A stretch of DNA of 64,000 nucleotides, taken from assembly GCA_964387845.1 (NCBI GenBank), contig CAYLXA010000006.1, forward strand, positions 128,001 to 192,000, in the 5' to 3' direction. Shown here piece after piece: positions 9,315-61,071 of the stretch (its first letter is position 1; every line of letters starts with the position of its first letter). The stretch comes from an uncultured bacterium. Lineage in GTDB: Bacteria; Omnitrophota; Omnitrophia; Omnitrophales; Abzuiibacteriaceae. The notes under the pieces were generated by a model. The model made no database searches, was not told the origin of the DNA, and worked only from the letters and a program-made list of their open reading frames with translations. The translations under genes and the position numbers were made by a program.

Positions 9315-9326
9315 CGATGTAAGTAT

Positions 9327-10994: not shown

Positions 10995-11018
10995 TGTCAG
11001 ACAACCAGGGAAAATGAA

Positions 11019-11246: not shown

Positions 11247-11255
11247 TAATTAGAT

Positions 11256-12439: not shown

Positions 12440-12545
12440 AACCAGGCTCTGCCCAAGTCAAGTATTGAAGCTTTTTTTCCGAAATATGAAGCACTGCTCT
12501 TGGGTTATTTTAAAGAGTAAATTTTTCGGGTCTGGGTGATGATTT

Positions 12546-46820: not shown

Positions 46821-47681
46821 TTGGATATCAGCATGTGGTTTTCGAAGCAAAAAGAAAAAGACGAGCCGCTTAAAGTACTGAAAGAAAGAGAAATTCAGGA
46901 AAAGCTTTACGGCCGCTTCCGTAAGCCGTATCCCGAAACGGTTTCCGGCGATGCCAATTCCGGCATGCCGGAGAATCAGACGGCGACTATCACCGCGCAG
47001 CCAAAACCCGCAATTTCGATAGAGCCGCCAAAACCAAAAGAAGCAAGCCAGTCCAGGCCTTCAATTAATTCTACGTATCAAACCAAAACGTCAGCCGCGT
47101 CTGAAAGTTACCGTCAGGCCGCAATTCCGCGATCGAGCCGCTCACTCCGGATTTTGAATATTCCGGTTATGATCAAGCTTTTAGGTTTCGTCGTTTTGAG
47201 CATCGTGGTTTTCTTTGCTGCTTGGTGGTTTGCTATCCAGTTTCATCGCAGCAAGTCGCCTGTGAACGAACAGCCGGTACGCGAAGGGGTTTCAACGCTC
47301 GTGGCACCCGCGCCGCAAGCGTATTCAGGAAAGCCCTCCTCATCCGAAACGGCGTCACGGGTCGATCAAATTGAAAAAGTCGAGCCCGCATCTGGCAGTC
47401 CAAGTGCGAACGAGCCGGCACTGCCTAGCAACTTTTACTCAATTCAGATCTGTACCTACTATTCGGAATCCGATGCCAACAAATTAATCGAAGAAATGAA
47501 GGCGCTCAATATTCCTGCCTTTCACCGGACGTCGGGAATCCGGGGATCTGATTCCAAGTTGCATATGGTGATGCTGGGTAAAGATGCCACATTCCAAGAA
47601 GCGCAAAAGCGGCTGGAGCAATTTCAAAAAACCGAAATTTCTAAAAAGTTTCTTGATGCATACGTGAGGAGGGTGTCGTAA
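46821..47681 (+). CDS. SPOR-like domain membrane protein
   Basis: Ser/Pro-rich N-terminal region, a TM helix (LLGFVVLSIVVFFAAWWFAI), and a C-terminal SPOR-like domain (FYSIQICTYYSESDANKLIEEMKALNIPAFH). Confidence 0.5.
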   Translation: MDISMWFSKQKEKDEPLKVLKEREIQEKLYGRFRKPYPETVSGDANSGMPENQTATITAQPKPAISIEPPKPKEASQSRPSINSTYQTKTSAASESYRQAAIPRSSRSLRILNIPVMIKLLGFVVLSIVVFFAAWWFAIQFHRSKSPVNEQPVREGVSTLVAPAPQAYSGKPSSSETASRVDQIEKVEPASGSPSANEPALPSNFYSIQICTYYSESDANKLIEEMKALNIPAFHRTSGIRGSDSKLHMVMLGKDATFQEAQKRLEQFQKTEISKKFLDAYVRRVS

Positions 47682-48043
47682 TGTGGGCGGGGCTTGAGAG
47701 CAGAAAGTTTCCTAGAGTAAAGGCGAGTTGTAAAATATTTCTTCAGCACGGATCGGACGTTCAGCCGGTGAAAGCGTCGACTGAAAATTTGGGCGCCGGC
47801 GGTCTGTGTATTTTTTTGGATCGTCCCCTCGATAAAATGTCGAACGTCAAAATAGAACTTGATTTACAAGACGGAAAAAATCCGATCCAATGTTCCGGCC
47901 GAGTGGTTTGGACGGTACGGAAGCGTTCGTTTAAGGCAGGCGAAGAGGGGCATGATATCGGAATAGAGTTTGTCAATTTGCCCGAGACGGATTTGAGCCG
48001 GATCTCCGCTCTAGTAAGCCGCACCGGCACTGCAAAAAAATAA
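47681..48043 (+). CDS. PilZ-domain protein (putative c-di-GMP receptor)
   Basis: PilZ signature RxxxR (RKFPRVK) and DxSxxG-like (NLGAGGLCIF). About 120 aa single domain. Start overlaps the upstream stop. Confidence 0.65.
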   Translation: MWAGLESRKFPRVKASCKIFLQHGSDVQPVKASTENLGAGGLCIFLDRPLDKMSNVKIELDLQDGKNPIQCSGRVVWTVRKRSFKAGEEGHDIGIEFVNLPETDLSRISALVSRTGTAKK

Positions 48044-48045
48044 CT

Positions 48046-48549
48046 ATGGGCAAAGAGTTTTCGTTCGATATTGTCTCCGAGGTTAATTTGCAAGAAGTGG
48101 ACAATGCCGTGAATCAGGCCATGAAAGAAATTCTCACTCGGTTTGATTTTAAGGGCAGTAAAAGTCAGATTGCGTTTAACCGCACGGAAAAAAAAGTCCA
48201 GCTAATTGCGGATGATGAAATGAAGATGCGGAATTTACGCGATGTTCTTTCCACCCGCCTAGCGAAACGGTCGATTTCAATGAAAGCACTCGATTACGGA
48301 ACCGAAGAGAAGGCGTTTGACGGCATGGTCCGCCAGGAGGCAAAACTAGTGGACGGTATTTCTCAGGAGCATGCGAAAGATATTGTCCGCCGGATCAAAG
48401 ATTTTAAGCTCAAAATCCAGCCGAGCATTCAGGGCGAGAGCGTTCGAGTGACCGGGAAAAGCAAAGACGATCTACAATTTATCATGCAGCAATTGAAAGC
48501 AAGCGACCTTACCATTCCGCTCCAATTCGCAAATTTTCGCGAGCATTAA
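48046..48549 (+). CDS. yajQ: YajQ-family (UPF0234) nucleotide-binding protein
   Basis: Full-length match to the YajQ pattern (FDIVSEVNLQEVDNAVNQA...RFDFKGS...IQLIADDE...). Confidence 0.85.
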   Translation: MGKEFSFDIVSEVNLQEVDNAVNQAMKEILTRFDFKGSKSQIAFNRTEKKVQLIADDEMKMRNLRDVLSTRLAKRSISMKALDYGTEEKAFDGMVRQEAKLVDGISQEHAKDIVRRIKDFKLKIQPSIQGESVRVTGKSKDDLQFIMQQLKASDLTIPLQFANFREH

Positions 48550-48701
48550 TCTCTTCTAAAAATCCCTGTTTTGAAGATTTTTTAACCCATCGAGATTTAA
48601 CTATCTCTTTGTAACTCTATTAAATACAAGAGCTTATACTGCGATAAAGTTAAAATAACTTTTATAAAACCGTTTATTAATAAAAAATGACCGCTTACCC
48701 C

Positions 48702-48729
48702 TTGCTTTCAGTAAAACACGTGTTATACT
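48702..48729 (+). promoter_or_regulatory. putative promoter with overlapping 10-nt palindrome in AT-rich spacer
   Basis: TTGCTT, a 16-nt spacer, then TATACT. The perfect palindrome AACACGTGTT (48715-48724) overlaps the spacer and -10 junction. Lies in the 324-nt AT-rich gap before the second PilZ gene. Confidence 0.3.
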
Positions 48730-48873
48730 TCTAATAACAGATAAAAATAAGCGTAACATATTGAAAATTAAGAAGTTACAAGAATAAACAATCTGTATAG
48801 CAAACGCGTAGAGCAGCCGAAATATAAAGGCCCGCATTGTTAAATTAAAATTGAAAAGGAAAATTGAAAAACC

Positions 48874-49314
48874 ATGAATTCGAATATTGAAGCAGTTGAT
48901 CAACACGGGAGGCGAGACATGTCAAAGGAGCGGCGAAGGTTTAAGCGTTTCGATGCTTATATGAGCGTTAAATGTGCGGTGCCGAGCAACGAAAATGCAA
49001 AAAATTATACGGTCGGTCTCACCAGAGATTTATCTCGTGATGGAATATGTTTGAGTACCAGCCAGCCTCTACCGAGCGGTTCGACCTTGAATATTGAAAT
49101 CGATATTCCGGATGATCCGCGGCCCATCTGCACTACGGGCAAAGTGATGTGGACTAAGAATGGAAATGCTGACGAGGGTAGTAATCACGGAATACGGTTC
49201 GTCAATATTGATCCTATCGATAAGTTTCGAGTTTTGGATTACGCTTACAACCATTGGCTTGAAACCAAAGTCAATGATTATGCGGACCCGGAGCAAGTAT
49301 CTGAATTAGGCTGA
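48874..49314 (+). CDS. PilZ-domain protein (putative c-di-GMP receptor)
   Basis: RxxxR (RRFKRFD) and DxSxxG (DLSRDGICL) PilZ signatures. About 146 aa. Confidence 0.65.
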   Translation: MNSNIEAVDQHGRRDMSKERRRFKRFDAYMSVKCAVPSNENAKNYTVGLTRDLSRDGICLSTSQPLPSGSTLNIEIDIPDDPRPICTTGKVMWTKNGNADEGSNHGIRFVNIDPIDKFRVLDYAYNHWLETKVNDYADPEQVSELG

Positions 49315-49332
49315 GCAACAATCTAGTTTTGC

Positions 49333-49369
49333 AAAAGAGCGTCTTATCCAAAGACGCTCTTTTGTTTTC
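49333..49369 (+). terminator. rho-independent terminator
   Basis: Perfect GC-containing hairpin AAAGAGCGTCTT / ATCCAA / AGACGCTCTTT followed by TTGTTTTCT, immediately after the second PilZ gene. Confidence 0.7.
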
Positions 49370-49470: not shown

Positions 49471-51546
49471 ATGGCACCCTTTTTTAGATTTGGCAAAGCC
49501 GCTCAGCCCAAGAAAGAATATGACATTACTCTTTTCCCGATTTTCACGGGATTGAGCCAAGCTGAGATTAAGATGGTCGAGGAGAAAATCCGCCTCGTAG
49601 AGCTCAAGAAAGGCGAGTGCGCGTATCAGAAAGGCGAGGCGGCAAGCGCCTTTTACGTGATCTTAACCGGACGTTTTCAAATTCTTCGTGAAAACGGCGA
49701 GGTGATCAATCACTTACACCATGGTGATTATTTCGGCGAAACTTCAATCATCACGGATCATCCGCACAGCGCAACGGTTCAGGCGAAAAATGATTCGATT
49801 GTGCTCAAGATCGAAAAGAATGATTTTTTGTGGCTCTTAAAACGTATTCCGGCACTATCACTTCAAATCAGCCGCACGTTGGGGCACCGGTTAACTTCCA
49901 ATATGGCCGGCGAAGAACTGGAAGGCCAATCCAAAATCCTCTCAATTTATCATGCGCAGCCGCGGATCGGTAATTCAACGTTCGCCGTCCGTTTGGCTGC
50001 ATCGCTTGCATTTGAGATGAAGAAAAAAGTGATCGTGGTTGATTTGAGCCAGATTCATGCCGAAGGGCGGTCGGTTTCTCGAACCCGGCCGCATGCGCGT
50101 TCTTATTCTCTTGCGTCTCATGGTTTGCCAAGCGCGCAGTCGCTCGACCCGTTCATTCTTAAAAAAGACGGGCCTTTTGATTTTTTGAACGTCTCAAACC
50201 ATGTGGAACTCGAAAAGGCCGAACGCCAGTTGGCACATTTATTGTCTTACTTGCTGTCACGCTATCACTACATCCTGATTGATTTACCAGCCGAATCATC
50301 CGGGCTCGGGCCTAAGGCTATTCAACAATCCGACTTGTTATATTTTTTAGTGGATTCGGGCGAAAAGGAAACACAAAAGACTCAAAACATCATTTATCAT
50401 TTCAAAGAGACATTCAGCCTCAACGATAACGACATCCGCTTGGTTCTGGTAGAAAGTAAGGATGCCAAAAGAATTTTTTCTTCCAATGTCGCGACTAAGC
50501 AATTTTATTCATATCCTGTTTTTGCGACACTGCCGCATGTTTCGGGAATGCCGTCGCCGAGCGAGACTAATTTAAAAGAGCCGCTTCCCGGCGATGCGGG
50601 AAAAGCTTATTCAAAGGTTATTCGGTTTTTAGCCCGTGAGGTAACCGGGACTTCGGTGGGGCTTGTGCTTGGAAGCGGCGCTGCGTTTGGTTTTGCACAC
50701 ATCGGTGTTTTGAAAGCGCTGGAGGAAGCAGGCATTGAAATTGATATTTTAGGCGGATGCAGCATGGGCTCGTTGATCGGCGGTATGTGGGCGCTCGGCA
50801 TCACAACGGATGAGCTGGTCAAAATTGCGACTGACCTGAACCCGAAGAATGTTTTTTTTAAATTAATCGGGCTTCAGGACCTATCCATCGCCCACCGCGG
50901 GTTCTTTAAAGGCGACCAGGTGACGGAATTTTTGCGGGAACACATCGGAAATGCGTCTTTTAGGGATGTGAAAGTTCCGATAAAAGTAATGGCAGCGGAC
51001 TTGGCAAACGGTAATCCGGTGGTTTTAGATGAAGGGTCGCTCTTGGCGGCAATTCGCGCCAGTATTTCGATTCCCGGAATTTTCCGTCCGTTTCAGATCG
51101 GGAACCGGTATTTAATGGACGGCGGCGTGGTGGATCCGCTTCCGGTCCAGATGCTCCGGCGGTACGGCGCTAAAAAAGTAATTGCCGTGAATGTGCTGCA
51201 ATCGCCGGATGACCATGCGAACCGGCTTGAAATCCTCCAGAGAAAAGATGAAAAGACAAATGAAATTATTCAAAATAAAAGCATCTTCGTCCGACATTTA
51301 TATGAATACCGAAAAGACTTTATGGATAAACAAACGGCCAATATCTTCAACGTGGTCATGAAGGCCATTCAATTTATGGAGTTTGAAATGGCGGAAAATT
51401 CCGAACTGCACGCCGATGTGGTTCTGCGGCCGATCGTGACGGATGCGCACTGGGCCGAGTTTTATCACGCGGAAAAATTTATCCGCAGGGGCGAAGACGA
51501 AACCTTGAAGGCGATGGATGAAATTAAGCGGATGATGAGCGAGTAA
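49471..51546 (+). CDS. cNMP-binding domain / degenerate MinD-ParA-like domain / patatin-like phospholipase fusion protein
   Basis: N-terminal CAP-family cNMP-binding domain (GDYFGETSII). The middle ~200 aa resembles a deviant P-loop ATPase with a degenerate Walker A (PRIGNSTFAVRLAASLA versus KGGVGKTT...) and a hhhhD Walker B (YILIDLP). C-terminal patatin domain has GSGAAFGFAHIGV (GxGxxG), GCSMGS (GxSxG) and a DGG region. Confidence 0.75.
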   Translation: MAPFFRFGKAAQPKKEYDITLFPIFTGLSQAEIKMVEEKIRLVELKKGECAYQKGEAASAFYVILTGRFQILRENGEVINHLHHGDYFGETSIITDHPHSATVQAKNDSIVLKIEKNDFLWLLKRIPALSLQISRTLGHRLTSNMAGEELEGQSKILSIYHAQPRIGNSTFAVRLAASLAFEMKKKVIVVDLSQIHAEGRSVSRTRPHARSYSLASHGLPSAQSLDPFILKKDGPFDFLNVSNHVELEKAERQLAHLLSYLLSRYHYILIDLPAESSGLGPKAIQQSDLLYFLVDSGEKETQKTQNIIYHFKETFSLNDNDIRLVLVESKDAKRIFSSNVATKQFYSYPVFATLPHVSGMPSPSETNLKEPLPGDAGKAYSKVIRFLAREVTGTSVGLVLGSGAAFGFAHIGVLKALEEAGIEIDILGGCSMGSLIGGMWALGITTDELVKIATDLNPKNVFFKLIGLQDLSIAHRGFFKGDQVTEFLREHIGNASFRDVKVPIKVMAADLANGNPVVLDEGSLLAAIRASISIPGIFRPFQIGNRYLMDGGVVDPLPVQMLRRYGAKKVIAVNVLQSPDDHANRLEILQRKDEKTNEIIQNKSIFVRHLYEYRKDFMDKQTANIFNVVMKAIQFMEFEMAENSELHADVVLRPIVTDAHWAEFYHAEKFIRRGEDETLKAMDEIKRMMSE

Positions 51547-51634: not shown

Positions 51635-52825
51635 ATGAAATCAGTAGTGATCGTTGACGGTGTCAGGACACCCCAAGGCATTCTTGGCGGGTCGCTTAAA
51701 AGTTTTACCAATCAAAAACTTGGTCAAGTGGTCGTCAAGGCGCTGCTCGAGCGTAACAAGCTTGATCCCAAACTGGTCCAGGAAGTTATTTTCGGCTGTG
51801 TCGGCCAGGCGAGCGATGCGGCGAACGTGTCGCGGGTTATCAGCTTGATGTCCGGAATTCCCCATACCGTTCCGGCTTTTACCGTGGCGCGTAATTGCGC
51901 CTCAGGCCTTCAGGCGGTTGTTTCGGCTTATCAGATGATTGTCTGCAATGAAGCCGATATCATTATCGCAGGGGGTGCGGAATCCATGTCGTGCGCGCCT
52001 TACGTGAACCGCGATCTCCGATTCGGTAAAAAATTACGCCACTCAACGATGATTGATTCGCTCTGGGAAGGTTTGACGGACCCGGTCTGCAAACAAATTA
52101 TGGGCGAAACCGCCGAAAATCTTGTCGAGGAATTTAAAATTACCCGGCAGGAACAGGACCAGTTCGCGGTTCAATCACACCAAAAAGCTTTCCGGGCAAA
52201 CCGCGAAGGAAAATTCAAAGACGAAATTGTCAAAGTCAGCGTCCCCAAGTTTGCGGCGGGCAAAGAAATGCCGCCCGAGATTTTTTCGGAAGATGAGGGG
52301 ATTAATGTCGGGCTCACCGAACAAATTTTGTCACAATATCCCACGGTTTTCAAAGAAGGCGGCAGCGTAACGCCGGGCAATTCGTGCCCGATTTCAGACG
52401 GAGCGGCAGCGCTTTTGATCATGAGTGAAGACAAAGCAAAAGAAATGAATCTCAAGCCCCTGGGCTACATAAAGTCTTACGCGTTTGCGGGCGTCGAGCC
52501 TCAGCGGATGGGCATCGGCCCTTCGTGTGCGGCACCGATTGCGCTTAAGCGTGCTAACTTAACACTCAAAGACATTCAATTAATGGAACTGAACGAAGCG
52601 TTCGCGGCTCAATTCATCGCTTGTGAGCGGCTGATGAAATTTGACCGCAACATCGTAAACGTCAACGGCGGTGCCATTGCGCTCGGCCATCCGGTTGGCG
52701 CCACAGGTGCGCGTCTTTTGGTAACGCTTCTCAATGAAATGAAACGCAAAAATTCAACCCTCGGGCTTGCAATGATGTGCGTGGGCGGCGGCCAGGGCGG
52801 TGCGATGATCGTGGAGAGAAAATAA
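51635..52825 (+). CDS. fadA: acetyl-CoA C-acyltransferase (thiolase)
   Basis: Thiolase active-site regions (NCASGLQAV, NVNGGAIALGHPVGATGARL, MCVGGGQG). Confidence 0.9.
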   Translation: MKSVVIVDGVRTPQGILGGSLKSFTNQKLGQVVVKALLERNKLDPKLVQEVIFGCVGQASDAANVSRVISLMSGIPHTVPAFTVARNCASGLQAVVSAYQMIVCNEADIIIAGGAESMSCAPYVNRDLRFGKKLRHSTMIDSLWEGLTDPVCKQIMGETAENLVEEFKITRQEQDQFAVQSHQKAFRANREGKFKDEIVKVSVPKFAAGKEMPPEIFSEDEGINVGLTEQILSQYPTVFKEGGSVTPGNSCPISDGAAALLIMSEDKAKEMNLKPLGYIKSYAFAGVEPQRMGIGPSCAAPIALKRANLTLKDIQLMELNEAFAAQFIACERLMKFDRNIVNVNGGAIALGHPVGATGARLLVTLLNEMKRKNSTLGLAMMCVGGGQGGAMIVERK

Positions 52826-52826
52826 T

Positions 52827-54044
52827 ATGTATATCTACAAAGCAGGCGTTGTCGGTGCGGGAACGATGGGCGCAGGGATTGCTCAGGTCATTACGTATTC
52901 GGGCTTGCCGGTCGTGCTAAAAGACGTTAACCAGCAGCTGGTCGATCAAGGCATCAAAAAAATTAAGGCAGTCTATGAAGCCAGGGTTTCAAAAGGAAAG
53001 ATGTCATCGGATGAGATGGCCAAAAAAATGAGCCTTGTGACCGGTGCTGTTGATTGGGAATCATTCAAAGATGTCGACATCGTGATTGAAGCAGCGCCCG
53101 AAAAAATGGAGCTCAAGAAAAAAATATTCCAAGAGTTGGATTCAATACTGCCGCAAACGGCGATTTTGGCGACCAATACCTCAGCGCTTTCGATTTCGGA
53201 ACTTGGCGCAGCGACCAAGCGGCCCGGGAAAGTCATTGGTTTTCACTTTTTTTATCCGGCTCATGTCATGAAATTGATCGAAGTAATACCTGGTTTAGCA
53301 ACAAGCGAGGAAACCATTAACGATTCAATCAGCTTTTCGGAATCAATCCGTAAGATTCCCGTGAAAGTCAATGAATGCGCAGGGTTTTTGGTGAACCGCG
53401 TGTTAATGCCTTATTTAAATGAAGCCGCGTTTTGCCTTCAGGAGGGCGCTGCCACGATTCAAGAAATCGACCAGGCGATCGTAAAATTCGGGCTTCCGAT
53501 GGGTCCGTTTACACTCGTGGACAATCTCGGGATGGATGTGTGTTTTGATGTTGTCCAGGTCCTAATGGGTTCCTACGGCAGCCGGATGAAGCCTGCCGAA
53601 ATTTGGGACTCGTTTCATCAAGCGAAAATGTTCGGGCGTAAGACCGGTGCGGGTTTTTACAGCTACGGAGAAAAGTCCGACGCCGATATCGATAAAATCG
53701 TGAAAGATGCTCAAGCTAAGTCGCCGAAAAAGAAAACCAAATTTTCCGTGGAGCGTTTGATTTATCCGATGATCAACGAGTCGGTGCTTTGCTTGGAAGA
53801 AAATGTTTCGAAAGCGGCGGATATCGATATGGCGATGGTTGCCGGAATCGGGTTCCCGCAGGATAAAGCCGGCATCCTGCATTATGCCGACGAAGTCGGG
53901 TTGGATAACGTGCTTAAAACGCTGGAAGAACTGACCAAAGAGCACGGCGAGCGTTTTTGGCCCGCGCCGCGTCTGCGCCGGATGGTCGCCGCGAATTTTC
54001 TCGGCAAAAAAACAGGGCGCGGATTTTTCGAATACTCATCCTAA
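52827..54044 (+). CDS. 3-hydroxyacyl-CoA dehydrogenase, NAD-binding
   Basis: Rossmann motif GVVGAGTMGAGIA, and the 3HCDH C-terminal domain. Start overlaps the thiolase stop. Confidence 0.85.
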   Translation: MYIYKAGVVGAGTMGAGIAQVITYSGLPVVLKDVNQQLVDQGIKKIKAVYEARVSKGKMSSDEMAKKMSLVTGAVDWESFKDVDIVIEAAPEKMELKKKIFQELDSILPQTAILATNTSALSISELGAATKRPGKVIGFHFFYPAHVMKLIEVIPGLATSEETINDSISFSESIRKIPVKVNECAGFLVNRVLMPYLNEAAFCLQEGAATIQEIDQAIVKFGLPMGPFTLVDNLGMDVCFDVVQVLMGSYGSRMKPAEIWDSFHQAKMFGRKTGAGFYSYGEKSDADIDKIVKDAQAKSPKKKTKFSVERLIYPMINESVLCLEENVSKAADIDMAMVAGIGFPQDKAGILHYADEVGLDNVLKTLEELTKEHGERFWPAPRLRRMVAANFLGKKTGRGFFEYSS

Positions 54045-54060
54045 CGCGAAAGGAATACGC

Positions 54061-54846
54061 ATGGCTGACAACCAATTTGTAAAGACCAAAATGGACGAAG
54101 GTGTCCTGATCCTCACAATCGATAATCCGCCTGTCAATGTTTTAAACAAACAAACGCTTGCCGAGCTGGACAAGACAATCGCAGACGCGCAAAGCGATTC
54201 AAAAGTGAAGGTGATTGTCATCACCGGTGCAGGCTCCATGGCATTTATTGCCGGCGCGGACATCAAAATCATTGCCAGCGTCCAATCTAAGCAGGAAGCC
54301 GTGTCGCTCGCACTTCAAGGCCAGGCGGTTTTGGATAAAATCGAAGCTTCAAAAAAACCTGTGATTGCGGCAATCAACGCTGTTTGTTTGGGCGGCGGCA
54401 ACGAATTGGCAATGGCTTGCCATATTCGCATTGCATCGGACCGCGCGAAATTCGGACAGCCGGAGGTAAGCCTTGGTATTGTGCCGGGGTTCGGCGGGTC
54501 GCAGCGCCTTGCGCGTTATTCCGGCGTTTCGAAAGCGCTGGAGCTTTGCTTGACGGGTGATTTGATTACTGCACAAGAAGCGCTCCGGATTAATTTGATC
54601 AACCGTGTTGTTCCGGATGGCGAAGTTCTCAAGCAAGCGGTCGGTATGGCGAAACGGATTGCATCAAAAGGGCAAGTGGCTGTCCGATTAATTACGGAAG
54701 CTGTGGTAGAGGGTATTAAAAAACCGCTCTCCGAAGGGCTTAAATTGGAGGCAGAGCAGTTTGGTAAAGTCAGTGAAACGAGTGATATGAAAGAGGGTGT
54801 CCGTGCTTTCTTGGAAAAAAGACAGCCTAAATTTGAAGATAAGTAA
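54061..54846 (+). CDS. enoyl-CoA hydratase (crotonase family)
   Basis: Crotonase oxyanion region AAINAVCLGGGNELAMACH and the catalytic Glu region (FGQPEVSLGI). Confidence 0.85.
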   Translation: MADNQFVKTKMDEGVLILTIDNPPVNVLNKQTLAELDKTIADAQSDSKVKVIVITGAGSMAFIAGADIKIIASVQSKQEAVSLALQGQAVLDKIEASKKPVIAAINAVCLGGGNELAMACHIRIASDRAKFGQPEVSLGIVPGFGGSQRLARYSGVSKALELCLTGDLITAQEALRINLINRVVPDGEVLKQAVGMAKRIASKGQVAVRLITEAVVEGIKKPLSEGLKLEAEQFGKVSETSDMKEGVRAFLEKRQPKFEDK

Positions 54847-54891: not shown

Positions 54892-55425
54892 ATGAAGTTA
54901 TTCCGCATAAAATCTATCGGTTTATCAGTCCTTGTTTTAGCTGTTTTGGCGAGCTACGGCTTCACTTTTGATTTTCAACAATGGGGCAAGAATCAGCAGG
55001 AGAATACCGCTCAAAACGGTGAACCAGCGGGTTCCGGACAAAAAGTAGTTGCGGCTAATGTTAAAAGGCCCGTAACGCCTTCGTTGGCGCAGCCGGTGGC
55101 GGATACCGAAATTGTCGAAATCCAAAATCAGATTCAACAAATTACCGAACATACCAAAGTCGTTGAGCAGCAAAGCGCTGCAGACCGTGCCGCACTTCAA
55201 AAAGTTTTGCAGCAAGTTCAAATCCAGAAAAAGCTTGTTGATACATTGAAGGTGCCGAAACAACCGGTTCCGGGCGATGCGTTGAATACCGACGAAATTA
55301 TCCGGCAGGCAAAATTGCGTCTTATTGCCGAAGATGTCCGCCGGACGCAGGAAGTGCTGCGGACGTCTAAAGTTGTTACTCCCGTTCCAAAACCTGTCCA
55401 AACAGTTAAAACCAGTGATCGGTAA
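54892..55425 (+). CDS. hypothetical secreted Gln-rich protein
   Basis: Signal peptide (LSVLVLAVLASYG) followed by a low-complexity Q/V/K-rich sequence. Embedded between the hydratase and the acyl-CoA ligase. No family recognised. Confidence 0.4.
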   Translation: MKLFRIKSIGLSVLVLAVLASYGFTFDFQQWGKNQQENTAQNGEPAGSGQKVVAANVKRPVTPSLAQPVADTEIVEIQNQIQQITEHTKVVEQQSAADRAALQKVLQQVQIQKKLVDTLKVPKQPVPGDALNTDEIIRQAKLRLIAEDVRRTQEVLRTSKVVTPVPKPVQTVKTSDR

Positions 55426-55446: not shown

Positions 55447-57291
55447 ATGTCGAACGATTTGCCTTATCAAAATTTACCCGAAATGTTTTTTGATCAGGCC
55501 GATCGCCTTCAAAACAAAACCGCTCTTCTTTCAAAAAAAGAAGGCCTCTACACGCCTATTTCGTGGCTTCAATTTAAAACGCAAGTACTCAAAGCGGTGC
55601 GCAGCTTCCAAAAGCTCGGTATCGGGTCGGGTGATTGTGTGGCGCTTCTGTCAGAAAACCGGCCTGAGTGGGCAATTACGGATCTCGCCGTACAGTCATT
55701 TGGTGCTTGCCTGGTTCCGGTGTATGCGACGAGTTCCATTAAAGAAGTCGGTTACGTCGTGCGGCATTCTGAAGCGAAAGTGATCGTGGTATCGACGGCG
55801 GAACAATTCTGTAAAGTTCAAAGTTTTCTGATCGAATCGTCATCAGTACGCCATATCATCGTCATGGATGGACCAGCCGCATCAGATCCACGCGTACTGA
55901 ATTGGGAGAGCTTTTTGGGAAGCAGTCAGGTGAGTGATTCTGAAGAAAAAGCCATTCGCCAAAACGTTGAAAAAATTCAGCCTGATCATTTGGCAACCGT
56001 CATTTACACATCCGGCACCACGGGGCCACCGAAAGGCGTCATGCTCAGCCACCGGAATTTTTTGATCAACTGTTGGGATGCAAAGCATGCAATTGATCTG
56101 CGTCCGGATGACGTCTCGCTTTCGTTTTTACCGCTCAGCCATGTATTCGAACGCACCGCAGGGTATTATTTTCCGATTATGGTCGGTTCTACTATCGCTT
56201 ACGCCGAAAGTATGAATACGGTTCCTGAAAACTTGCTCGAAGTAAAACCGACAGTTGCCAGCAGCGTGCCGCGCCTTTATGAAAAAATTCACGAAAAGAT
56301 AATGGATAAAATCCGGAACGCGCCGCCGCTTCGAAAAAAACTGGCCAACTGGGCAATCAAAGTCGGTTACCGGACCGCGCCATACCGGCTTGTGCATAAA
56401 AGTTTACCGGCACTGCTTGCGATTCAATATAAAATTGCCAAACTTCTTATCTTTAATAAATTACAAAAACAACTGGGCGGCCGGATGCGGTTTTTTATTT
56501 CAGGCGGCGCACCTCTTTCAAAACAAATTGCGGAGTTCTTTTATGCAGCCGGTGTTGTGATTTTGGAGGGATATGGCCTCACCGAAACATCGCCTGTGAT
56601 TGCTGTCAATCGGCTTGACCGTCTGAAATTCGGAACGGTCGGAATCCCGTTTGATCATGTTGAGGTCAGGATCGCAGATGATGGTGAAATCGCGGCACGC
56701 GGCCCTTCGATTATGAAGGGTTATTACAAAGATGATACCGCAACAAACGAAGTAATTCGGGACGGCTGGTTTTATACGGGCGATATCGGCCAAATTGATT
56801 CTGAAGGTTTTCTATCGATTACCGACCGGAAAAAAGATCTCATCGTTACATCCGGCGGCAAGAATATTGCTCCGCAAAATATTGAAAATTCACTGACGCG
56901 CCATCCGCTGATTCAGCAGGCAGTGATATTGGGAGACCGTTATAATTTTCTAACTGCCCTCATCGTGCCCAAGTTTGAAAATCTCGCAAAGCAACTCGGA
57001 AAGGATGAGGTGTCGAAGAGAGCATTGATTGCTGTGCCGGAGGCATATAGACTCATCGCAGAAGCAATCCGGGAGCAGACGCTTGAATTACCGAATTATG
57101 AAAAGGTGAAAACTTTTAGGATGTTGGACGAGGAATTTTCGCAGGAGAAAGGCGAGCTTACGCCGACACTGAAAGTGAAAAGGAAGATCGTGGCGGACCG
57201 GTACCGGCAGCTGATCGAAGAAATGTGTGCTGAAGTCGAAGAAAGAAAAAAACACGACCCTTCGTTATCAAAGGAAGTGATGGGCGGTTAA
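55447..57291 (+). CDS. fadD: long-chain-fatty-acid--CoA ligase (AMP-binding enzyme)
   Basis: AMP-binding motif YTSGTTGPPKG, and the downstream GYGLTETS and TGDIG motifs. Confidence 0.85.
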   Translation: MSNDLPYQNLPEMFFDQADRLQNKTALLSKKEGLYTPISWLQFKTQVLKAVRSFQKLGIGSGDCVALLSENRPEWAITDLAVQSFGACLVPVYATSSIKEVGYVVRHSEAKVIVVSTAEQFCKVQSFLIESSSVRHIIVMDGPAASDPRVLNWESFLGSSQVSDSEEKAIRQNVEKIQPDHLATVIYTSGTTGPPKGVMLSHRNFLINCWDAKHAIDLRPDDVSLSFLPLSHVFERTAGYYFPIMVGSTIAYAESMNTVPENLLEVKPTVASSVPRLYEKIHEKIMDKIRNAPPLRKKLANWAIKVGYRTAPYRLVHKSLPALLAIQYKIAKLLIFNKLQKQLGGRMRFFISGGAPLSKQIAEFFYAAGVVILEGYGLTETSPVIAVNRLDRLKFGTVGIPFDHVEVRIADDGEIAARGPSIMKGYYKDDTATNEVIRDGWFYTGDIGQIDSEGFLSITDRKKDLIVTSGGKNIAPQNIENSLTRHPLIQQAVILGDRYNFLTALIVPKFENLAKQLGKDEVSKRALIAVPEAYRLIAEAIREQTLELPNYEKVKTFRMLDEEFSQEKGELTPTLKVKRKIVADRYRQLIEEMCAEVEERKKHDPSLSKEVMGG

Positions 57292-58142
57292 TGAGGCAGG
57301 AAACCGGTTTTTTCGATTCGTTCGACCAAACCAAACTGTTTTACCGTTGCTGGATTTCGGAAAAACCAAATCCAAAACCATGCCTAATTCTTCATGGGTA
57401 CGGCGAACATTCCCGGCGCTATGACGAGCTCGTGAGCTTTTTGCAGGATGTCCCGTATTCATTTTTTTCATTTGATTTACGCGGGCAAGGGCGTTCAGGC
57501 GGTGTTCGGGTTCATGCCGATCAATTTGAAGATTTTGTAAAGGATGCCGAAACATATCTCAATTTTCTGCAGCGAGATAAGATCTCTGTAAATCAGAAAG
57601 CGGCATTGCTCGGCCACAGTTTGGGCGGTTTGATCGCAATCCGGCTTGCATTGCAAATTCCGAGCCGGTTTGACAAGGCAATTTTATCATCACCGTTTTT
57701 GGGTGCGCACGGCCTGGCAGCGCTCGACTTGACGTTCTGGCTTGCGGCGTTTCTCAATCAAGCAATGCCGAAATTGCAGCTTCCGGGGCCCGCAAGACCG
57801 CGGTATCTTTTTCATGACGCCGAGAAAATGAAGCAATATCTAGCCGATACGCTGATCGAGCGCAGAATCACGGCTCGCCTCGGCTATGAATTGTTGCGCG
57901 AGTCCCGTGCGGCAGGTGAGCGGGCGGTGCATTTGCAAATGCCGCTTCTTGTTTTGGCAAGCGGGGATGACCGGATTGTATCGCTTGAGAAAACCAAAAG
58001 CTGGTTTGAGCAAGTTTCGGCGCCCGAGAAAGAGATGAAAGTCTATCCGGATTTTTATCACGAAATTTTTCATGAAACCGGCAGGAAAGAGCCGATGACG
58101 AAAGTGAAAGAATTTCTCGAAAAAAATAATGGAGGTATGTGA
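57291..58142 (+). CDS. alpha/beta hydrolase (lysophospholipase/monoacylglycerol lipase-like)
   Basis: HGYGEH oxyanion region, nucleophile elbow GHSLGG, and a C-terminal His (DFYHEIFHE). Start overlaps the ligase stop. Confidence 0.75.
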   Translation: MRQETGFFDSFDQTKLFYRCWISEKPNPKPCLILHGYGEHSRRYDELVSFLQDVPYSFFSFDLRGQGRSGGVRVHADQFEDFVKDAETYLNFLQRDKISVNQKAALLGHSLGGLIAIRLALQIPSRFDKAILSSPFLGAHGLAALDLTFWLAAFLNQAMPKLQLPGPARPRYLFHDAEKMKQYLADTLIERRITARLGYELLRESRAAGERAVHLQMPLLVLASGDDRIVSLEKTKSWFEQVSAPEKEMKVYPDFYHEIFHETGRKEPMTKVKEFLEKNNGGM

Positions 58143-58282
58143 TGAAACCAATATTGAAGTTAGCAGTAGTAGTTTTGCTTTTGGGTATGTTGGCTGGATG
58201 CGGCGAAACATTCCGCGGTATCGGAAAAGACACATCCAGGATTTGGTACGGCACCAAAACAATTTTTGTTAGTCAAGAATAA
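58142..58282 (+). CDS. entericidin-like micro-lipoprotein (not in the supplied ORF track)
   Basis: 46-aa ORF (MKPILKLAVVVLLLGMLAGCGETFRGIGKDTSRIWYGTKTIFVSQE). It has a signal peptide and lipobox LAGC followed by the entericidin EcnA/B-like C..T.RG.G.D core. Its ATG overlaps the upstream TGA. Confidence 0.5.
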   Translation: MKPILKLAVVVLLLGMLAGCGETFRGIGKDTSRIWYGTKTIFVSQE

Positions 58283-58949
58283 CGAGGCCCCATTGTTACA
58301 CCGATTAATTTCATGCGTGGTAATCATATCGGTCTTGATTTCAGGCTGCGTGCAATACAAGCGCCCGCCGATGATGATCAAAGTGCCGAGCTACTACGAC
58401 AATCAAATCTCGCTCAAAGATTTGACGCTGGTTGCTGATCCTTACATTGAACGCGCGAAGATCGAGCATTTATTTAACACCAATTTGCTTGAAAAAGGTT
58501 TTCTTGCGATCCAGCTGATTGCTTTCAATGACGGAGACGGCGTTTTTGACATGTCGCGTTCTGCAGTCGTTTTAGTGCGTGACGATGGGATTGTTTTCCC
58601 GCCGGTTCCGCCCAAACAGGTAAGCAAGAAGGTCTTGCGTCGCACATCGCTCCGGATGTTGGGGTGGGGATTCGCCGGACTTATCGTTTTGAGCATTCCG
58701 CTGTCGCTGGCTGCGGGCGTTGATTCTCGGCGCGCCAATCAGGGAATCCGTCGCACCCTTAAAGAGAATGTGCTGAGCTCTCACGAAATCGGCGCCCGTG
58801 AAGTTGTAAGTGGTTTTTACTTTTTCAAGATTGGAAAGTCGCATGGCCATAGCCAGGGCTCGCTTGCGCATCAGTACCGGTTCAAAATTGATCGATTGTT
58901 AGAGGTTGACTCCGGAGTAGAATACGAGTTTAATATCGGGATAAATTAA
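58266..58949 (+). CDS. hypothetical lipoprotein
   Basis: The N-terminus contains a lipobox-like LISGC after a hydrophobic stretch. No other recognisable motif. Start uncertain; the ATG overlaps the micro-lipoprotein ORF by 17 nt. Confidence 0.4.
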   Translation: MLVKNNEAPLLHRLISCVVIISVLISGCVQYKRPPMMIKVPSYYDNQISLKDLTLVADPYIERAKIEHLFNTNLLEKGFLAIQLIAFNDGDGVFDMSRSAVVLVRDDGIVFPPVPPKQVSKKVLRRTSLRMLGWGFAGLIVLSIPLSLAAGVDSRRANQGIRRTLKENVLSSHEIGAREVVSGFYFFKIGKSHGHSQGSLAHQYRFKIDRLLEVDSGVEYEFNIGIN

Positions 58950-58967: not shown

Positions 58968-59040
58968 GGGCCAGTAGCTCAGCTGGGAGAGCGCTACATT
59001 CGCATTGTAGAGGTCACGAGTTCAATCCTCGTCTGGTCCA
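58968..59040 (+). tRNA. tRNA-Ala (anticodon CGC)
   Basis: Hand-folded cloverleaf with acceptor GGGCCAG/CTGGTCC carrying the G3:U70 Ala identity pair, D-arm GCTC-AGCTGGGA-GAGC, anticodon stem CTACA/TGTAG with loop TTCGCAT, T-arm ACGAG-TTCAATC-CTCGT and discriminator A73. CCA is not encoded. Confidence 0.8.
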
Positions 59041-59461: not shown

Positions 59462-60334
59462 ATGAGCTACTACCGCATTTTAGGTTTTGATAAAGAGCCT
59501 TTTTCCACAAGCCCGGACCCTAACTTTTTTTATCTTACCCGCGAGCACGAAACGGCGCTGACCAATGTTTTAATCGAGCTCAGATTGCGCCGAGGTTTGT
59601 CGGTTGTTTTGGGGGATGTTGGAACCGGCAAAACAAGTCTTTCCCGGAAATTAGTTCAGTGCTTGCGTGAGCGGAGCGACTTTATATTTCATATTGTTTT
59701 AGATCCCTGCTTCGAGAATGAGCATCTTTTCTTAACCTCCTTAATTCGCAATTTGGGAATCGTTGTCGATCAGCCGCATGAACAAGACCGAACTCTGCTT
59801 CGGCACACGGTTTTAGACTTAAAAGAGGCTTTAGAAAAGTACCTTTATCAGAAGTGCGTTATCGAAAATAAAACAGTGGTTTTGATTGTCGACGAGGCGC
59901 AGAAGCTGAGCGAATCCTCGATGGAAATGCTGCGTGTTATACTTAATTACGAAACCAACGAAAACAAATTGTTGCAGCTCGTCCTTTTGGGCCAAATGGA
60001 GCTTCATGCAAAAATCGTGAATATCCCGAATTTTTGCGACCGGATTAGTTTTAAATATTCGCTCAACCCGCTGGATTTCAAGGAAACGAAAGACATGATC
60101 CGCTACCGGATCAAGCAAGCAGGCTACAACGCGCCGTCCCATCTTTTTTTAGATGATGCAATTCAGCTGATTCACAAAGTGTCGCGCGGATATCCGAGAA
60201 AAATCACGATGCTGTGCCATCGCTCGCTCAAGAAGCTTGTGATGCAAAGTAAATGGTCGGTCGACGAAAATTTGGTGCGCGAAATCGTGAATGAAGATAT
60301 TCATTCCGGCTGGCTTGCGCCGACGCTGCATTAA
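59462..60334 (+). CDS. ExeA/GspA/MshM-like AAA ATPase (secretin-associated)
   Basis: Walker A VVLGDVGTGKTS and Walker B VLIVDEAQKL. About 290 aa, of the ExeA-like type found beside T2SS/MSHA secretins. Confidence 0.8.
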   Translation: MSYYRILGFDKEPFSTSPDPNFFYLTREHETALTNVLIELRLRRGLSVVLGDVGTGKTSLSRKLVQCLRERSDFIFHIVLDPCFENEHLFLTSLIRNLGIVVDQPHEQDRTLLRHTVLDLKEALEKYLYQKCVIENKTVVLIVDEAQKLSESSMEMLRVILNYETNENKLLQLVLLGQMELHAKIVNIPNFCDRISFKYSLNPLDFKETKDMIRYRIKQAGYNAPSHLFLDDAIQLIHKVSRGYPRKITMLCHRSLKKLVMQSKWSVDENLVREIVNEDIHSGWLAPTLH

Positions 60335-60351
60335 GGATTTTAAAATCCGAT

Positions 60352-61071
60352 ATGGGAGACGAAACACCGGAACAGCAGCTTTTAAAGCTGATTGAGCAGC
60401 CGCAAGCGAGCGGTGCTCAGCCGGCGGGGGATTCTAAAGATCCCAAAGCGGATACAGCGGCAGCGGCAAAAGCAAAGAAAGGTCTCAATTTTAAGAGCCT
60501 GCTGACACCAAGCGGATGGAAAGGCGTTTTGTCCTATGCAAAGGAACAAGGCGCAACGCTGGCAAAGCAAAAGCCGGAAGTTTACAGTCTCCGAAGTTTT
60601 AACCGTTTTTTTCGGATCGCGCTCGGCGCCGGCGGAATAGTAATGTTTTGTTACATTGCTTATGCGGCTTACGTCATGAATAGTGAGTTTCACGAGCTGT
60701 CTGATTCGACACAAAAGGAAATGGCTGATCTGCCCATGTCGGGCGGGCGAATGTTGGATCCGAATTTTTTTGAGGATATTGCGAAACGGAATATTTTTGC
60801 ACCGATGGAAAAAAAGCTGGAGCCCGAGCTTGCGCTTGAGTCTGGAGTTAGCAAAGCGGCTCTCGTTGAAATGGCAAAAGATATCAAGCTAACGGGGATT
60901 TCCGTAAATCCAACGGATGAGAGCCGCACATTTTGCATGATCGAAGACCTTAAGAAAAACACGACAAGTTTTTTAAAAGTTGGCGACGGAATCGCCGGAT
61001 TTACGATTAGCAAAATCGGTCCTGACAGCGTTGAGCTCAAATACCAAAAGGAAGCGATCGAGCTGAGATAA
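60352..61071 (+). CDS. putative PilP/GspC-like secretin-interacting inner-membrane protein
   Basis: Cytoplasmic N-terminus, a single TM (ALGAGGIVMFCYIAYAAYVM), and a C-terminal small beta-domain (RTFCMIEDLKKNTTSFLKVGDGIAGFTISKIGPDSVELKY) like the PilP/GspC HR domain. Position immediately upstream of a secretin. Confidence 0.45.
   Translation: MGDETPEQQLLKLIEQPQASGAQPAGDSKDPKADTAAAAKAKKGLNFKSLLTPSGWKGVLSYAKEQGATLAKQKPEVYSLRSFNRFFRIALGAGGIVMFCYIAYAAYVMNSEFHELSDSTQKEMADLPMSGGRMLDPNFFEDIAKRNIFAPMEKKLEPELALESGVSKAALVEMAKDIKLTGISVNPTDESRTFCMIEDLKKNTTSFLKVGDGIAGFTISKIGPDSVELKYQKEAIELR

Follow-up and report, generated by a model that had tools for sequence, protein, structure and literature searches.

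An Omnitrophota variant of the CNB-patatin lipases with a pseudo-ParA domain between its two parts, and its probable place in lipid catabolism

NTE/PNPLA6 is a eukaryotic, ER-bound protein with an N-terminal transmembrane anchor, three CNB domains and no known ParA-like domain. According to PMC12710771, it converts phosphatidylcholine to glycerophosphocholine, and mutations in its CNB sites impair function in flies; the role of these domains is given as still open in three sources (PMC12710771, PMC9319352, PMC7103881). Bacteria encode two-domain CNB-patatin proteins (the Rv2565 type, and others in Methylobacterium bullatum and Ensifer), which are cytoplasmic and uncharacterised. Rv2565 of M. 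tuberculosis has been listed among esterases and also among CNB-domain proteins (PMC10865251, PMC4886424). Two further patatins lack both sensor and ParA domains: RssA/YchK of E. coli, a single domain of ~300 aa, and PlpD of P. aeruginosa, the passenger of a secreted type Vd autotransporter. In the papers that our full-text search returned, RssA/YchK and Rv2565 were mentioned only in passing. Among ParA-like proteins, those of the TadZ/CpaE type have a receiver-like domain and function alongside Tad/Cpa pilus genes; they are not known as enzyme fusions. Finally, the nucleotide-activated patatin lipases CapV/CapE of CBASS and the CNB-fused PycTIR of Pycsar illustrate ligand-gated logic, for lipases or other effectors, in bacteria (PMC12480259).

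We analysed a 64-kb window (the whole stretch of DNA under study, from an uncultured Omnitrophota bacterium), in which an ORF with an ATG start at 49471..51546 (forward strand, as are all features described below) encodes a 691-aa protein with three domains in the order CNB, MinD/ParA-fold and patatin. Pfam cNMP_binding matched residues 43-125 (E 2.6e-20) and Patatin matched residues 398-562 (E 9e-33); AAA_31, a MinD/ParA-type family, matched residues 155-293 (E 8.8e-6) with 26.2 bits, slightly short of its cut-off of 27 bits. Together with a fold search, these matches bear out the tri-domain architecture proposed by the first-pass annotation. We found a 100% identical protein, P0001, on another assembly and more than 475 homologues, the best 120 being almost all full length; full-length homologues number in the hundreds and are mostly from Omnitrophota. 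Over hundreds of sequences, the layout persists even where identity falls to 26-28%. In an alignment of 82 family members, to which all residue and motif counts refer, mean column conservation was 0.67 for the CNB domain, 0.39 for the middle domain and 0.70 for the patatin domain. The gene has the GC content of its surroundings.

The chain starts with a conserved peptide, M-x-[FLW]-F-x-F-[GW]-[RK]-K (49471..49530; F5 in 70/82, F7 in 74/82 and K10 in 71/82 members), which has a pLDDT <50 in the predicted structure. We observed no signal peptide, no hydrophobic N-terminal segment and no TM helix in the predicted model, so the protein looks cytoplasmic. The earlier idea of phospholipid scavenging, in the sense of external phospholipid, is not supported. 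The pTM of 0.77 for the three-domain chain softly suggests a defined arrangement between the domains, as in one integrated unit. Like NTE/PNPLA6 (Swiss-cheese) and PNPLA7, the protein places a CNB fold N-terminal to an RssA/YchK-type patatin esterase; however, compared with NTE (by description), it has one CNB domain instead of three, no TM segment and a ~240-aa ParA-fold domain in between. It shares the CNB-then-patatin order with the two-domain bacterial proteins, Rv2565 being likened to it by description. The M. bullatum protein (L082 3986-5731, 581 aa) has a canonical cassette, PRSAT, and a canonical oxyanion loop, GGGGARG; its inter-domain region (~170 aa) showed no significant similarity to the pseudo-ParA profile (E 0.31). 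The 409-aa ORF upstream of the M. bullatum gene was matched by nothing in the window or in the loci of relatives, and by no informative PDB entry.

The N-terminal domain has a CAP/PKA-type cyclic-nucleotide-binding fold (residues ~21-143, 49531..49899), with the beta-barrel of PF00027 present. Its phosphate-binding cassette, GDYFGETSIITDHPHSATVQA (49723..49785), retains the F-G-E and S-A of the PF00027 pattern G-E...R-[ST]-A; the Arg position is occupied by His99, which falls opposite the Arg of EPRTAS in an alignment to PKG CNB-D. This histidine is a family trait (81/82 members). F88 and E90 never vary, G89 occurs in 81/82 members, and S92 and S100 are nearly invariant, a pattern that indicates purifying selection on a putative binding pocket. 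Verrucomicrobial orthologues retain Y-R-[SA]-T in the cassette, an example with the native Arg being the one at 9848-11959 of L029. Because His replaces the phosphate-binding Arg in nearly all members, the identity of the ligand is uncertain: it may be a cyclic nucleotide, and "cyclic-nucleotide-gated", as the first-pass annotation had it, is too firm a term.

The middle domain (residues ~152-393, 49924..50649) has the MinD/ParA-type P-loop NTPase fold and is nearest to the CpaE/TadZ branch. A 33-sequence profile of this domain matched the ParA-family ATPase 3ea0 best (E 3.5e-14), followed by Soj, MinD and other ParA-family proteins, and Foldseek returned 3ea0_A (E 3.8e-9, TM 0.71); the similarity to the ParA family is far above chance. 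CpaE/TadZ-type proteins (PDB 3ea0, 3fkq) are its closest relatives in sequence and structure, the nearest free-standing ones being CpaE/TadZ-like REC+ParA proteins, and the P-loop of 3ea0 is itself atypical in the profile alignment (KGGDGGS). In place of the deviant Walker A motif K-G-G-x-G-K-[ST], the protein has the degenerate stretch HAQPRIGNSTF (49951..49983, with A-Q-P-R-I-G-N-S-T at the motif), in which both the signature and the catalytic lysine are gone. Across the family, we counted GK[ST] in 9/82 members, Gx[ST][ST] without Lys in 9/82, GR[ST] in 3/82 and nothing in 61/82; P0024 and P0039 are among the members that retain GK[ST], and the signature KGG was absent from those of them that were listed. 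A Walker B-like strand, YILIDLP, is present at residues 267-273 (50269..50289), its Asp271 being kept in 41/82 members and replaced by Arg in 24.

Structure prediction recovered the P-loop fold that the first-pass annotation had proposed for this region, so the refuting outcome that it had named did not arise. The Walker A lysine is replaced (PRIGNST, residues 164-170; GK[ST] lost in 73/82 members), and the YILIDLP string that it had quoted is present. Its term "inserted pseudo-ATPase" is better exchanged for a CpaE/TadZ-type ParA domain with a dead Walker A, bearing in mind the minority of members with GK[ST]. The low column conservation and the loss of Walker A in most members suggest a non-catalytic domain, which we infer to be a scaffold or dimerisation module rather than an ATPase. 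The protein follows the same logic as CpaE/TadZ, an N-terminal sensor-like domain and then a ParA-like domain, but its N-domain is a CNB fold instead of a receiver-like one, its C-terminus is a lipase, and its neighbours are metabolic, with PilZ and thiolase genes on its flanks in place of tad/cpa genes.

The patatin core (50650..51204) has the alpha/beta fold of PF01734 and, as judged from its residues, a complete Ser-Asp dyad. Its glycine-rich oxyanion loop is present, with Phe in place of the Arg or Lys usual in patatins (G-G-x-[RK]-G). The nucleophile Ser431 lies in G-C-S-M-G (G429-G433; nt 50761-50763) and the catalytic Asp550 in D-G-G (nt 51118-51120), and both are invariant (82/82). The oxyanion loop, GSGAAFG (residues 401-407), aligns with S-G-G-A-A-R-G of PlpD; the GxSxG motif noted earlier is present, and the literal GxGxxG noted with it is not, since the loop reads G-S-G-A-A-F-G. 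The C-terminal helical extension (51205..51543) is one common to RssA-type patatins: the NCBIfam RssA model NF007623 aligned over residues 395-689 (model positions 5-297 of 301, E 2.4e-45) with 155 bits against an equivalog cut-off of 272 bits, which makes the protein RssA-like and not an equivalog.

Downstream of the lipase gene, we identified a thiolase (acetyl-CoA C-acyltransferase, FadA-like, 51635..52825; Pfam Thiolase_N/C, TIGR01930 457 bits, above cut-off), a 3-hydroxyacyl-CoA dehydrogenase that corresponds to FadB/FadJ in their C-terminal half (52827..54044; Pfam 3HCDH_N and two 3HCDH matches, aligning to FadJ 309-701 and FadB 314-710) and an enoyl-CoA hydratase of the crotonase family (54061..54846; Pfam ECH_1, E 4e-67). 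These are followed by a 177-aa protein with an N-terminal hydrophobic anchor and no family match (54892..55425), weakly similar to the ORF that takes its place in the L004 operon (27% identity, E 3e-8), a FadD-like long-chain fatty-acid-CoA ligase (55447..57291; Pfam AMP-binding, E 7e-83; best NCBIfam match FadD11, below cut-off) and a Hydrolase_4 alpha/beta hydrolase resembling lysophospholipases and monoacylglycerol lipases (57291..58142; PF12146, E 3.7e-63). The last of these matched lysophospholipase L2 weakly, and its position is conserved in many related loci. The first-pass annotation had listed these genes correctly as beta-oxidation enzymes, ligase and hydrolase; "complete" was too strong, as neither an acyl-CoA dehydrogenase nor ETF is encoded in the operon or the rest of the 64-kb window. 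GlpK and GDPD are likewise absent from the window, so the pathway is locally incomplete. A biosynthetic direction (butyrate or PHB) is also conceivable in principle for the thiolase, Hbd-like and crotonase genes.

The lipase gene and the genes downstream are separated by short gaps or overlap, and a terminator-like hairpin lies ahead of it, after the upstream PilZ gene (49331..49368; a 15-bp stem without mismatches and then UUUUGUUUU, -22.1 kcal/mol, z -7.2), suggesting one transcription unit that starts with the lipase gene. The hairpin was spotted by eye. A promoter/terminator scan of 47.5-59.6 kb missed it and found fewer sites than, or no more than, in shuffles, so the scan is uninformative on operon structure. 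An Rfam scan of 45-60 kb returned a tRNA-Ala only; the 156-nt gap upstream of the lipase gene contained neither a riboswitch nor a leader. We also considered the upstream PilZ/YajQ/PilZ genes as co-transcribed partners and set them aside, as the hairpin and, in relatives, the GlpK/GDPD insertions that part PilZ from the lipase argue against this.

The genomic context in relatives is the strongest result of our analysis. Beta-oxidation or acyl-CoA-ligase genes (thiolase, 3HCDH, ECH, ACSL) or Hydrolase_4 lie downstream in 19 of the 22 Omnitrophota loci for which downstream sequence was available. A second layout was seen in ~18 loci, mostly labelled Verrucomicrobiota, where lipase, AMP-binding ligase, thiolase and fused FadB follow in order, with a VLCAD-type ACAD next in 14; the cultivable verrucomicrobia Chthoniobacter and Luteolibacter carry this operon type. 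In L027, L030 and L036, the stop codon of a fused FadB gene lies within the gene for a CNB-less paralogue. Further genes of the cluster are an ACAD (L023), ETF alpha/beta (L018) and an ETF-QO-like gene (L017), and GpsA, a G3P dehydrogenase, is encoded directly downstream of the lipase in L021. GlpK is encoded upstream in five loci (L003, L004, L005, L010, L018), scoring above the equivalog cut-off in all three that were scanned (L004, L010, L018). GDPD is encoded upstream in four (L003, L016, L018, L023), while in L029 it comes after the ACAD; in some relatives, GlpK or GDPD is the immediate upstream neighbour. Fad neighbours were absent from three Omnitrophota loci (L020-L022) and from Leptospira relatives. 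The core synteny LepA-LepB-...-lipase-fad is fixed across divergent genomes, and phylogenetic inertia could account for some of the synteny within Omnitrophota, since the entire block from LepA to the lipase is conserved. Overall, the association recurs in three operon layouts and two phyla, and relatives add GlpK, GDPD, ACAD and ETF; the link to fatty-acid catabolism drawn in the earlier annotation is thus much stronger than a single window could show.

The protein is probably an acyl-ester hydrolase of the RssA/NTE type that acts in the cytoplasm under regulation, and its gene would head a cluster for the catabolism of glycerolipids and fatty acids. The lipase would cut acyl chains off glycerophospholipids or lysophospholipids, possibly also neutral glycerolipids, and the co-encoded Hydrolase_4 esterase would take off the remaining chain. 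The FadD-like ligase would then activate the freed fatty acids for breakdown by the thiolase, hydratase and dehydrogenase, with an acyl-CoA dehydrogenase presumably encoded elsewhere in the genome. A small ligand on the CNB domain may control the enzyme, its signal passing through a rigid pseudo-ParA domain to the catalytic domain. By analogy, the chemistry of NTE, from phospholipid or lysophospholipid to glycerophosphodiester and fatty acids, would fit the GDPD, GlpK and fad neighbours.

The closest competitor is membrane-lipid homeostasis, in which the lipase, like NTE/PNPLA6 or a housekeeping lysophospholipase, trims or recycles phospholipids of the cell's own inner membrane on a signal and the fad genes only recycle by-products. 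A cytoplasmic protein without signal peptide, its RssA/NTE-type patatin features and its core housekeeping neighbourhood are all consistent with such remodelling, as is GpsA, an enzyme of phospholipid synthesis, directly downstream of the lipase in L021. Omnitrophota are uncultured, mainly fermentative (on sugar) or acetogenic and possibly host-dependent in a description that mentions no lipid use (PMC10066038). However, ligase, FadA, FadB, VLCAD and GDPD share an operon in Verrucomicrobiota, and GlpK and GDPD are adjacent to the lipase in Omnitrophota; energy-yielding breakdown fits these better, and we regard remodelling as unlikely. There is overlap between these two readings, and sequence alone hardly tells them apart.

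The substrate might instead be a neutral lipid (triacylglycerol, diacylglycerol or wax ester), the enzyme mobilising storage lipid as an ATGL-like lipase. The oxyanion loop G-S-G-A-A-[FY]-G would suit this: it lacks the Arg/Lys typical of phospholipid-acting patatins such as PlpD, the position being Phe/Tyr in 76/82 members and Leu in 6/82, and ATGL/PNPLA2 is likewise not known to carry a basic residue there. The five loci with an adjacent glycerol kinase, and the monoacylglycerol lipases within the Hydrolase_4 family, point the same way. Yet verrucomicrobial orthologues in the same operon type carry the basic residue (GGAKG), and storage lipids are without support in these organisms. Moreover, the glycerophosphodiesterase genes next to the lipase (four loci in Omnitrophota, one in Verrucomicrobiota) point to head-group products of phospholipids, and we consider neutral lipid as the main substrate a distinctly poorer prospect than remodelling.

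The first-pass annotation raised an antiphage role. In abortive infection of the kind known from CBASS CapV/CapE or Pycsar effectors, a nucleotide messenger made on infection would bind the CNB domain and turn the lipase against the membrane of its own cell; the CNB domain does resemble those of PycTIR (PADLOC E ~1e-15; PDB 8jsk). The PADLOC matches were at the domain level only, though, and the neighbours matched no defence model. No CD-NTase or cyclase adjoins the gene, and no nucleotide cyclase was found among the Pfam-scanned ORFs in 27-64 kb of the window, a negative that weighs on our preferred reading as well. Instead of a variable defence-island or mobile context, the gene has a fixed place in core synteny, a GC content that matches its surroundings and a position within a metabolic operon in two phyla, and among 72,556 plasmids and 50,697 phages no record covered at least 80% of the protein. 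On this context, we rejected a defence system as very improbable; the gene is most likely a regulated entry point into lipid catabolism rather than an antiviral weapon. That the N-terminal and middle domains are vestiges on a constitutive RssA-like esterase is just as hard to credit: the decayed Walker A, the lost cassette Arg and the CNB-less versions in the same operon types (L044; 500-aa paralogues) would agree with it, but the CNB domain is conserved nearly as well as the catalytic one, its cassette residues are (nearly) invariant, and the architecture has held over hundreds of divergent sequences.

Each domain of the protein is individually ordinary, and many bacteria already have annotated fusions of CNB and patatin domains; our full-text literature search returned no paper on a CNB-ParA-patatin protein and none on a lipid operon in Omnitrophota. 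We conclude that it is a variant of the bacterial NTE-like CNB-patatin lipases, with a ParA-fold domain in between. If a decayed ParA/TadZ domain does act as a signal-transmitting scaffold within an enzyme, this would be a new role for the fold, none having turned up in the literature search. A more speculative scheme, to which we attach little weight, is that a non-canonical nucleotide or nucleoside in the His-type cassette drives TadZ-like dimerisation of the pseudo-ParA domain, or its recruitment to the membrane or a pole, and so activates a lipase of the NTE type whose products supply the fad operon that it heads. Such a path from second messenger through lipolysis to beta-oxidation, if true, would be a prokaryotic counterpart, in one polypeptide, of hormone-stimulated lipolysis, and the pseudo-ATPase would be a ligand-controlled assembly switch freed from the need for ATP. 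The role of the CNB domains in NTE is an open, disease-relevant question in PMC12710771; a bacterial relative that is soluble and has a clear metabolic read-out could serve as a simple model and help explain these domains in NTE-type lipases. A conserved and regulated cluster for lipid catabolism would also give Omnitrophota and related Verrucomicrobiota a testable metabolic trait.

The ORF at 49471-51546 (+ strand, ATG start) encodes a 691-aa protein in which Pfam identified a CAP-type cyclic-nucleotide-binding (CNB) domain (cNMP_binding, residues 43-125, E 2.6e-20) and a patatin domain (residues 398-562, E 9e-33). Between them, AAA_31 matched residues 155-293 just below threshold (26.2 bits; cut-off, 27), and BcsQ also matched weakly. 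The first-pass annotation, made from the sequence alone, had proposed a CNB, P-loop-like and patatin order; Pfam and our profile and fold searches of the middle region bore this out, and the strings it quoted lie at residues 164-170 (PRIGNST) and 267-273 (YILIDLP). The feature is real and conserved, and had been read sensibly.

We aligned 82 full-length homologues and cut out the middle domain of 33 sequences. The middle-domain profile best matched the ParA-family ATPase 3ea0 (E 3.5e-14), followed by Soj, other ParA-family proteins, and MinD. An AlphaFold2 model from the 82-sequence alignment (mean pLDDT 82.9, pTM 0.77) had a regular beta-alpha-beta pattern across residues 155-392. Foldseek against the PDB matched this part to 3ea0_A (E 3.8e-9, TM 0.71, 259 columns), the C-terminal part to PlpD, and the N-terminal part to many CNB domains. 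The middle region is a genuine MinD/ParA-fold domain; the P-loop NTPase fold on which the earlier reading depended was found by profile search, model and Foldseek.

The nucleotide-binding motifs of this pseudo-ParA domain have decayed. As had been proposed, the Walker A lysine is replaced: the deviant motif K-G-G-x-G-K-[ST] reads A-Q-P-R-I-G-N-S-T in the window protein, with neither lysine left. GK[ST] was present in 9 of the 82 homologues, Gx[ST][ST] without lysine in 9 (the clade of the window protein), and GR[ST] in 3; nothing was recognisable in 61. The Walker B aspartate was retained in 41/82, and mean column conservation was lowest here (0.39, versus 0.67 for the CNB domain and 0.70 for patatin). 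These sequence patterns fit a structural, not catalytic, role, with progressive motif decay within the family.

Searching the middle-domain profile against 1.84 billion representative proteins gave 9,954 matches at E <= 1e-3. The best ∼70 were mainly 630-750 aa and apparently tri-domain, along with some shorter ones that look partial; among matches of about E 1e-25 and weaker, many were ∼400-aa proteins, to which Pfam assigned Response_reg plus AAA_31/ParA, i.e., the CpaE/TadZ architecture. One such relative carries a fused T2SSE ATPase. Since the nearest non-lipase relatives are of this type, we placed the origin of the middle module in the CpaE/TadZ branch of the MinD/ParA superfamily; in both cases an N-terminal sensor-like domain is paired with a ParA-like domain.

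Residues 395-689 spanned the whole RssA model (E 2.4e-45, under the equivalog cut-off). The catalytic dyad, Ser431 (G-C-S-M-G) and Asp550 (D-G-G), is intact and invariant in the aligned family, and the enzyme should be active. The oxyanion loop reads G-S-G-A-A-[FY]-G, without the Arg or Lys of PlpD, and is GGAKG in two inspected verrucomicrobial tri-domain orthologues.

The CNB fold of the N-terminal domain is clear. Its phosphate-binding cassette reads G-D-Y-F-G-E-T-S-I-I-T-D-H-P-H-S-A-T-V, and a HMMER alignment placed His99 opposite the Arg of E-P-R-T-A-S in PKG CNB-D. In PKA, CAP, and PKG, this arginine contacts the cyclic phosphate. Every aligned family member has F88 and E90, and nearly all have G89 (81/82), H99 (81/82), and S100 (78/82); Leptospiraceae relatives also have the histidine, and two inspected Verrucomicrobiota orthologues (loci L029 and L040) keep Y-R-[SA]-T. 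This near-invariance indicates a pocket that is under selection yet non-canonical, and the domain very probably binds a ligand. The first-pass annotation proposed cyclic-nucleotide gating; with His99 in place of the canonical arginine, the ligand may be cAMP or cGMP but need not be. The family also conserves an N-terminal peptide, F-x-F-[GW]-[RK]-K, which may serve in autoinhibition or membrane binding.

Directly 5′ of the lipase gene lies a PilZ, YajQ (DUF520), PilZ trio (47681-49314, +), followed by a terminator-like hairpin (49331-49368, +) with a perfect 15-bp stem and then UUUUGUUUU (-22.1 kcal/mol, z -7.2), which a consensus terminator scan did not pick up. With this hairpin directly after the PilZ gene, the lipase gene is probably the first of its transcription unit. 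Downstream, with short gaps or overlaps, are a thiolase (51635-52825), a 405-aa 3-hydroxyacyl-CoA dehydrogenase (3HCDH) that corresponds to FadB/FadJ in their C-terminal half (52827-54044), a 261-aa enoyl-CoA hydratase (ECH; 54061-54846), a FadD-like ligase (55447-57291), and a Hydrolase_4 esterase (57291-58142), all on the + strand. Two further + strand products lack a family match: a 177-aa protein with an N-terminal hydrophobic anchor (54892-55425), weakly similar to an ORF at the equivalent position in L004, and a 227-aa protein whose N-terminal region has a lipobox-like I-S-G-C, with a hydrophobic segment further on (58266-58949). Both are candidate envelope proteins for lipid uptake. The block ends at tRNA-Ala (anticodon CGC, 58968-59040, +). 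The split FadB functions (52827-54846) run 3HCDH before ECH, opposite to the fused FadB order; verrucomicrobial relatives and Omnitrophota paralogue loci instead encode ECH and 3HCDH as one fused protein, in that order. No acyl-CoA dehydrogenase (ACAD), ETF, glycerol kinase (GlpK), or glycerophosphodiester phosphodiesterase (GDPD) was found in the 64 kb; without ACAD and ETF, the operon is not the "complete" beta-oxidation set that had been claimed.

The most informative result came from genomic context, for which we compared the window proteins with 80 related loci. In Omnitrophota, 19 of the 22 loci with downstream sequence have some of thiolase, 3HCDH, ECH, ligase, and Hydrolase_4 3′ of the lipase gene. 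Some 18 Verrucomicrobiota-labelled loci have another layout (lipase, AMP-binding ligase, thiolase, fused FadB), with a VLCAD-type ACAD next in 14 and a GDPD after this gene set in L029. A CNB-less Omnitrophota paralogue (∼500 aa, pseudo-ParA plus patatin; L027, L028, L030 at 8214-12654 with its neighbours, L036) overlaps at its start with the stop codon of a FadB-like gene fusing ECH and 3HCDH in L027, L030, and L036; L028 has no FadB-like gene immediately 5′. A REC-HisKA-HATPase hybrid kinase lies 3′ of the paralogue in L030, the one such locus domain-scanned, and ∼380-aa ORFs occupy the equivalent position in the other three. At these loci, the part of the fused sensor may be taken by a two-component system.

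Further members of the cluster are an ACAD (L023), ETF beta/alpha (L018), an ETF-QO-like flavoprotein (L017), and GpsA directly 3′ (L021). Glycerol kinase lies directly upstream in L003, L004, L005, L010, and L018 (above the equivalog cut-off in all three scanned, L004, L010, and L018), and GDPD in L003, L016, L018, and L023. Taken together, these genes would describe glycerophospholipid or glycerolipid breakdown. A LepA-LepB-SPOR-GNAT-SPOR-PilZ-YajQ-PilZ block 5′ of the lipase gene is conserved in Omnitrophota and shows that synteny there is generally sticky; the lipase-fad association nevertheless occurs in three operon layouts and two phyla, so inherited gene order is not its sole explanation. 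In most Omnitrophota loci a single-domain PilZ gene adjoins the lipase gene or is separated only by GlpK/GDPD, and it persists even at loci that have otherwise lost synteny (L019, 9519-9863; L072, 1839-2177). There may be a c-di-GMP link.

A protein search returned >475 homologues. Of the best 120, almost all are full length at 660-700 aa and most carry the label Candidatus Omnitrophica/Omnitrophota; one homologue is 100% identical to the window protein. When genomes were scanned at one per species, 554 stretches encoding such proteins were found. Full-length tri-domain copies occur in Omnitrophota and Verrucomicrobiota (Chthoniobacterales and others), a CNB-less verrucomicrobial version in L044, and 568-576-aa versions with a reduced middle domain in Leptospiraceae. 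Databases name the family only "patatin-like phospholipase family protein" or "NTE family protein".

Like NTE/PNPLA6, the window protein has CNB before RssA-type patatin, and it would share the glycerophosphodiester-producing chemistry of these enzymes. It is no strict member of their family: it carries a single CNB domain where they have three, lacks a membrane anchor, and includes a ParA-fold domain in addition. It groups with bacterial CNB-patatin proteins that are uncharacterised, Rv2565 among them; reviews mention these only briefly (PMC10865251, PMC4886424). Alphaproteobacterial replicons encode ∼580-aa proteins matching the CNB and patatin domains. In the one inspected, a 581-aa Methylobacterium bullatum protein (L082, 3986-5731; replicon NZ_LR743510.1) with canonical cassette PRSAT and loop GGGGARG, the middle region had no significant similarity to the pseudo-ParA profile, and this module sets the window protein apart from it. 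The preceding 409-aa ORF (the two genes together span L082 2760-5731) carries F-G-G-D-G-A. It had no informative PDB match, and neither the window nor the other loci contain a homologue; it might be a cyclase-like protein of the kind reported beside Rv2564/Rv2565 (PMC4886424).

We propose that a ligand at the CNB domain would signal through the rigid pseudo-ParA domain to patatin, possibly by a change in dimerisation of the kind that ParA/TadZ proteins show; for a three-domain chain, a pTM of 0.77 hints at a fixed arrangement. This relay would control the release of fatty acids, which the co-encoded enzymes would consume. In the breakdown route suggested by the combined loci, patatin and Hydrolase_4 would take off acyl chains, GDPD cleave the head-group diester, GlpK phosphorylate glycerol, and the ligase activate the fatty acids for oxidation. 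A role in membrane-lipid homeostasis overlaps with this catabolic reading and is inseparable from it by sequence. A neutral-lipid lipase is suggested by the missing basic oxyanion-loop residue and the GlpK neighbours, but GDPD adjacency favours phospholipid. The antiphage effector raised in the first-pass annotation is argued against by context: PADLOC matches were at domain level only, the neighbours had no defence matches, no adjacent cyclase was found, GC content is unremarkable, and no plasmid or phage record covers >=80% of the protein. The gene also keeps a fixed position on the core chromosome. Vestigial regulatory domains are hard to reconcile with the strongly conserved CNB pocket.

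Across the window (1-64000), the + strand carries nearly all long ORFs, and GC skew stays positive from end to end; housekeeping genes include a split glycine-cleavage P protein, lipoate ligase, UvrD, M48 and M16 peptidases, LepA, and LepB. The stretch is core chromosome and probably lies on the leading strand. Downstream of the lipid block, 59462-63730 (+) is a pilus or secretion gene set (AAA_22 ATPase, T2SSC-like protein, secretin, TPR protein).

We found no publication on the CNB-ParA-patatin architecture or the Omnitrophota lipid-catabolic cluster. The individual domains are familiar, and the combination is a variant with a decayed TadZ-type domain inside an enzyme. Overall, this decayed domain, a non-canonical sensor pocket, and a highly consistent lipid-catabolic context make a clear, testable hypothesis of regulated lipid breakdown that covers two poorly understood phyla, Omnitrophota and Verrucomicrobiota.
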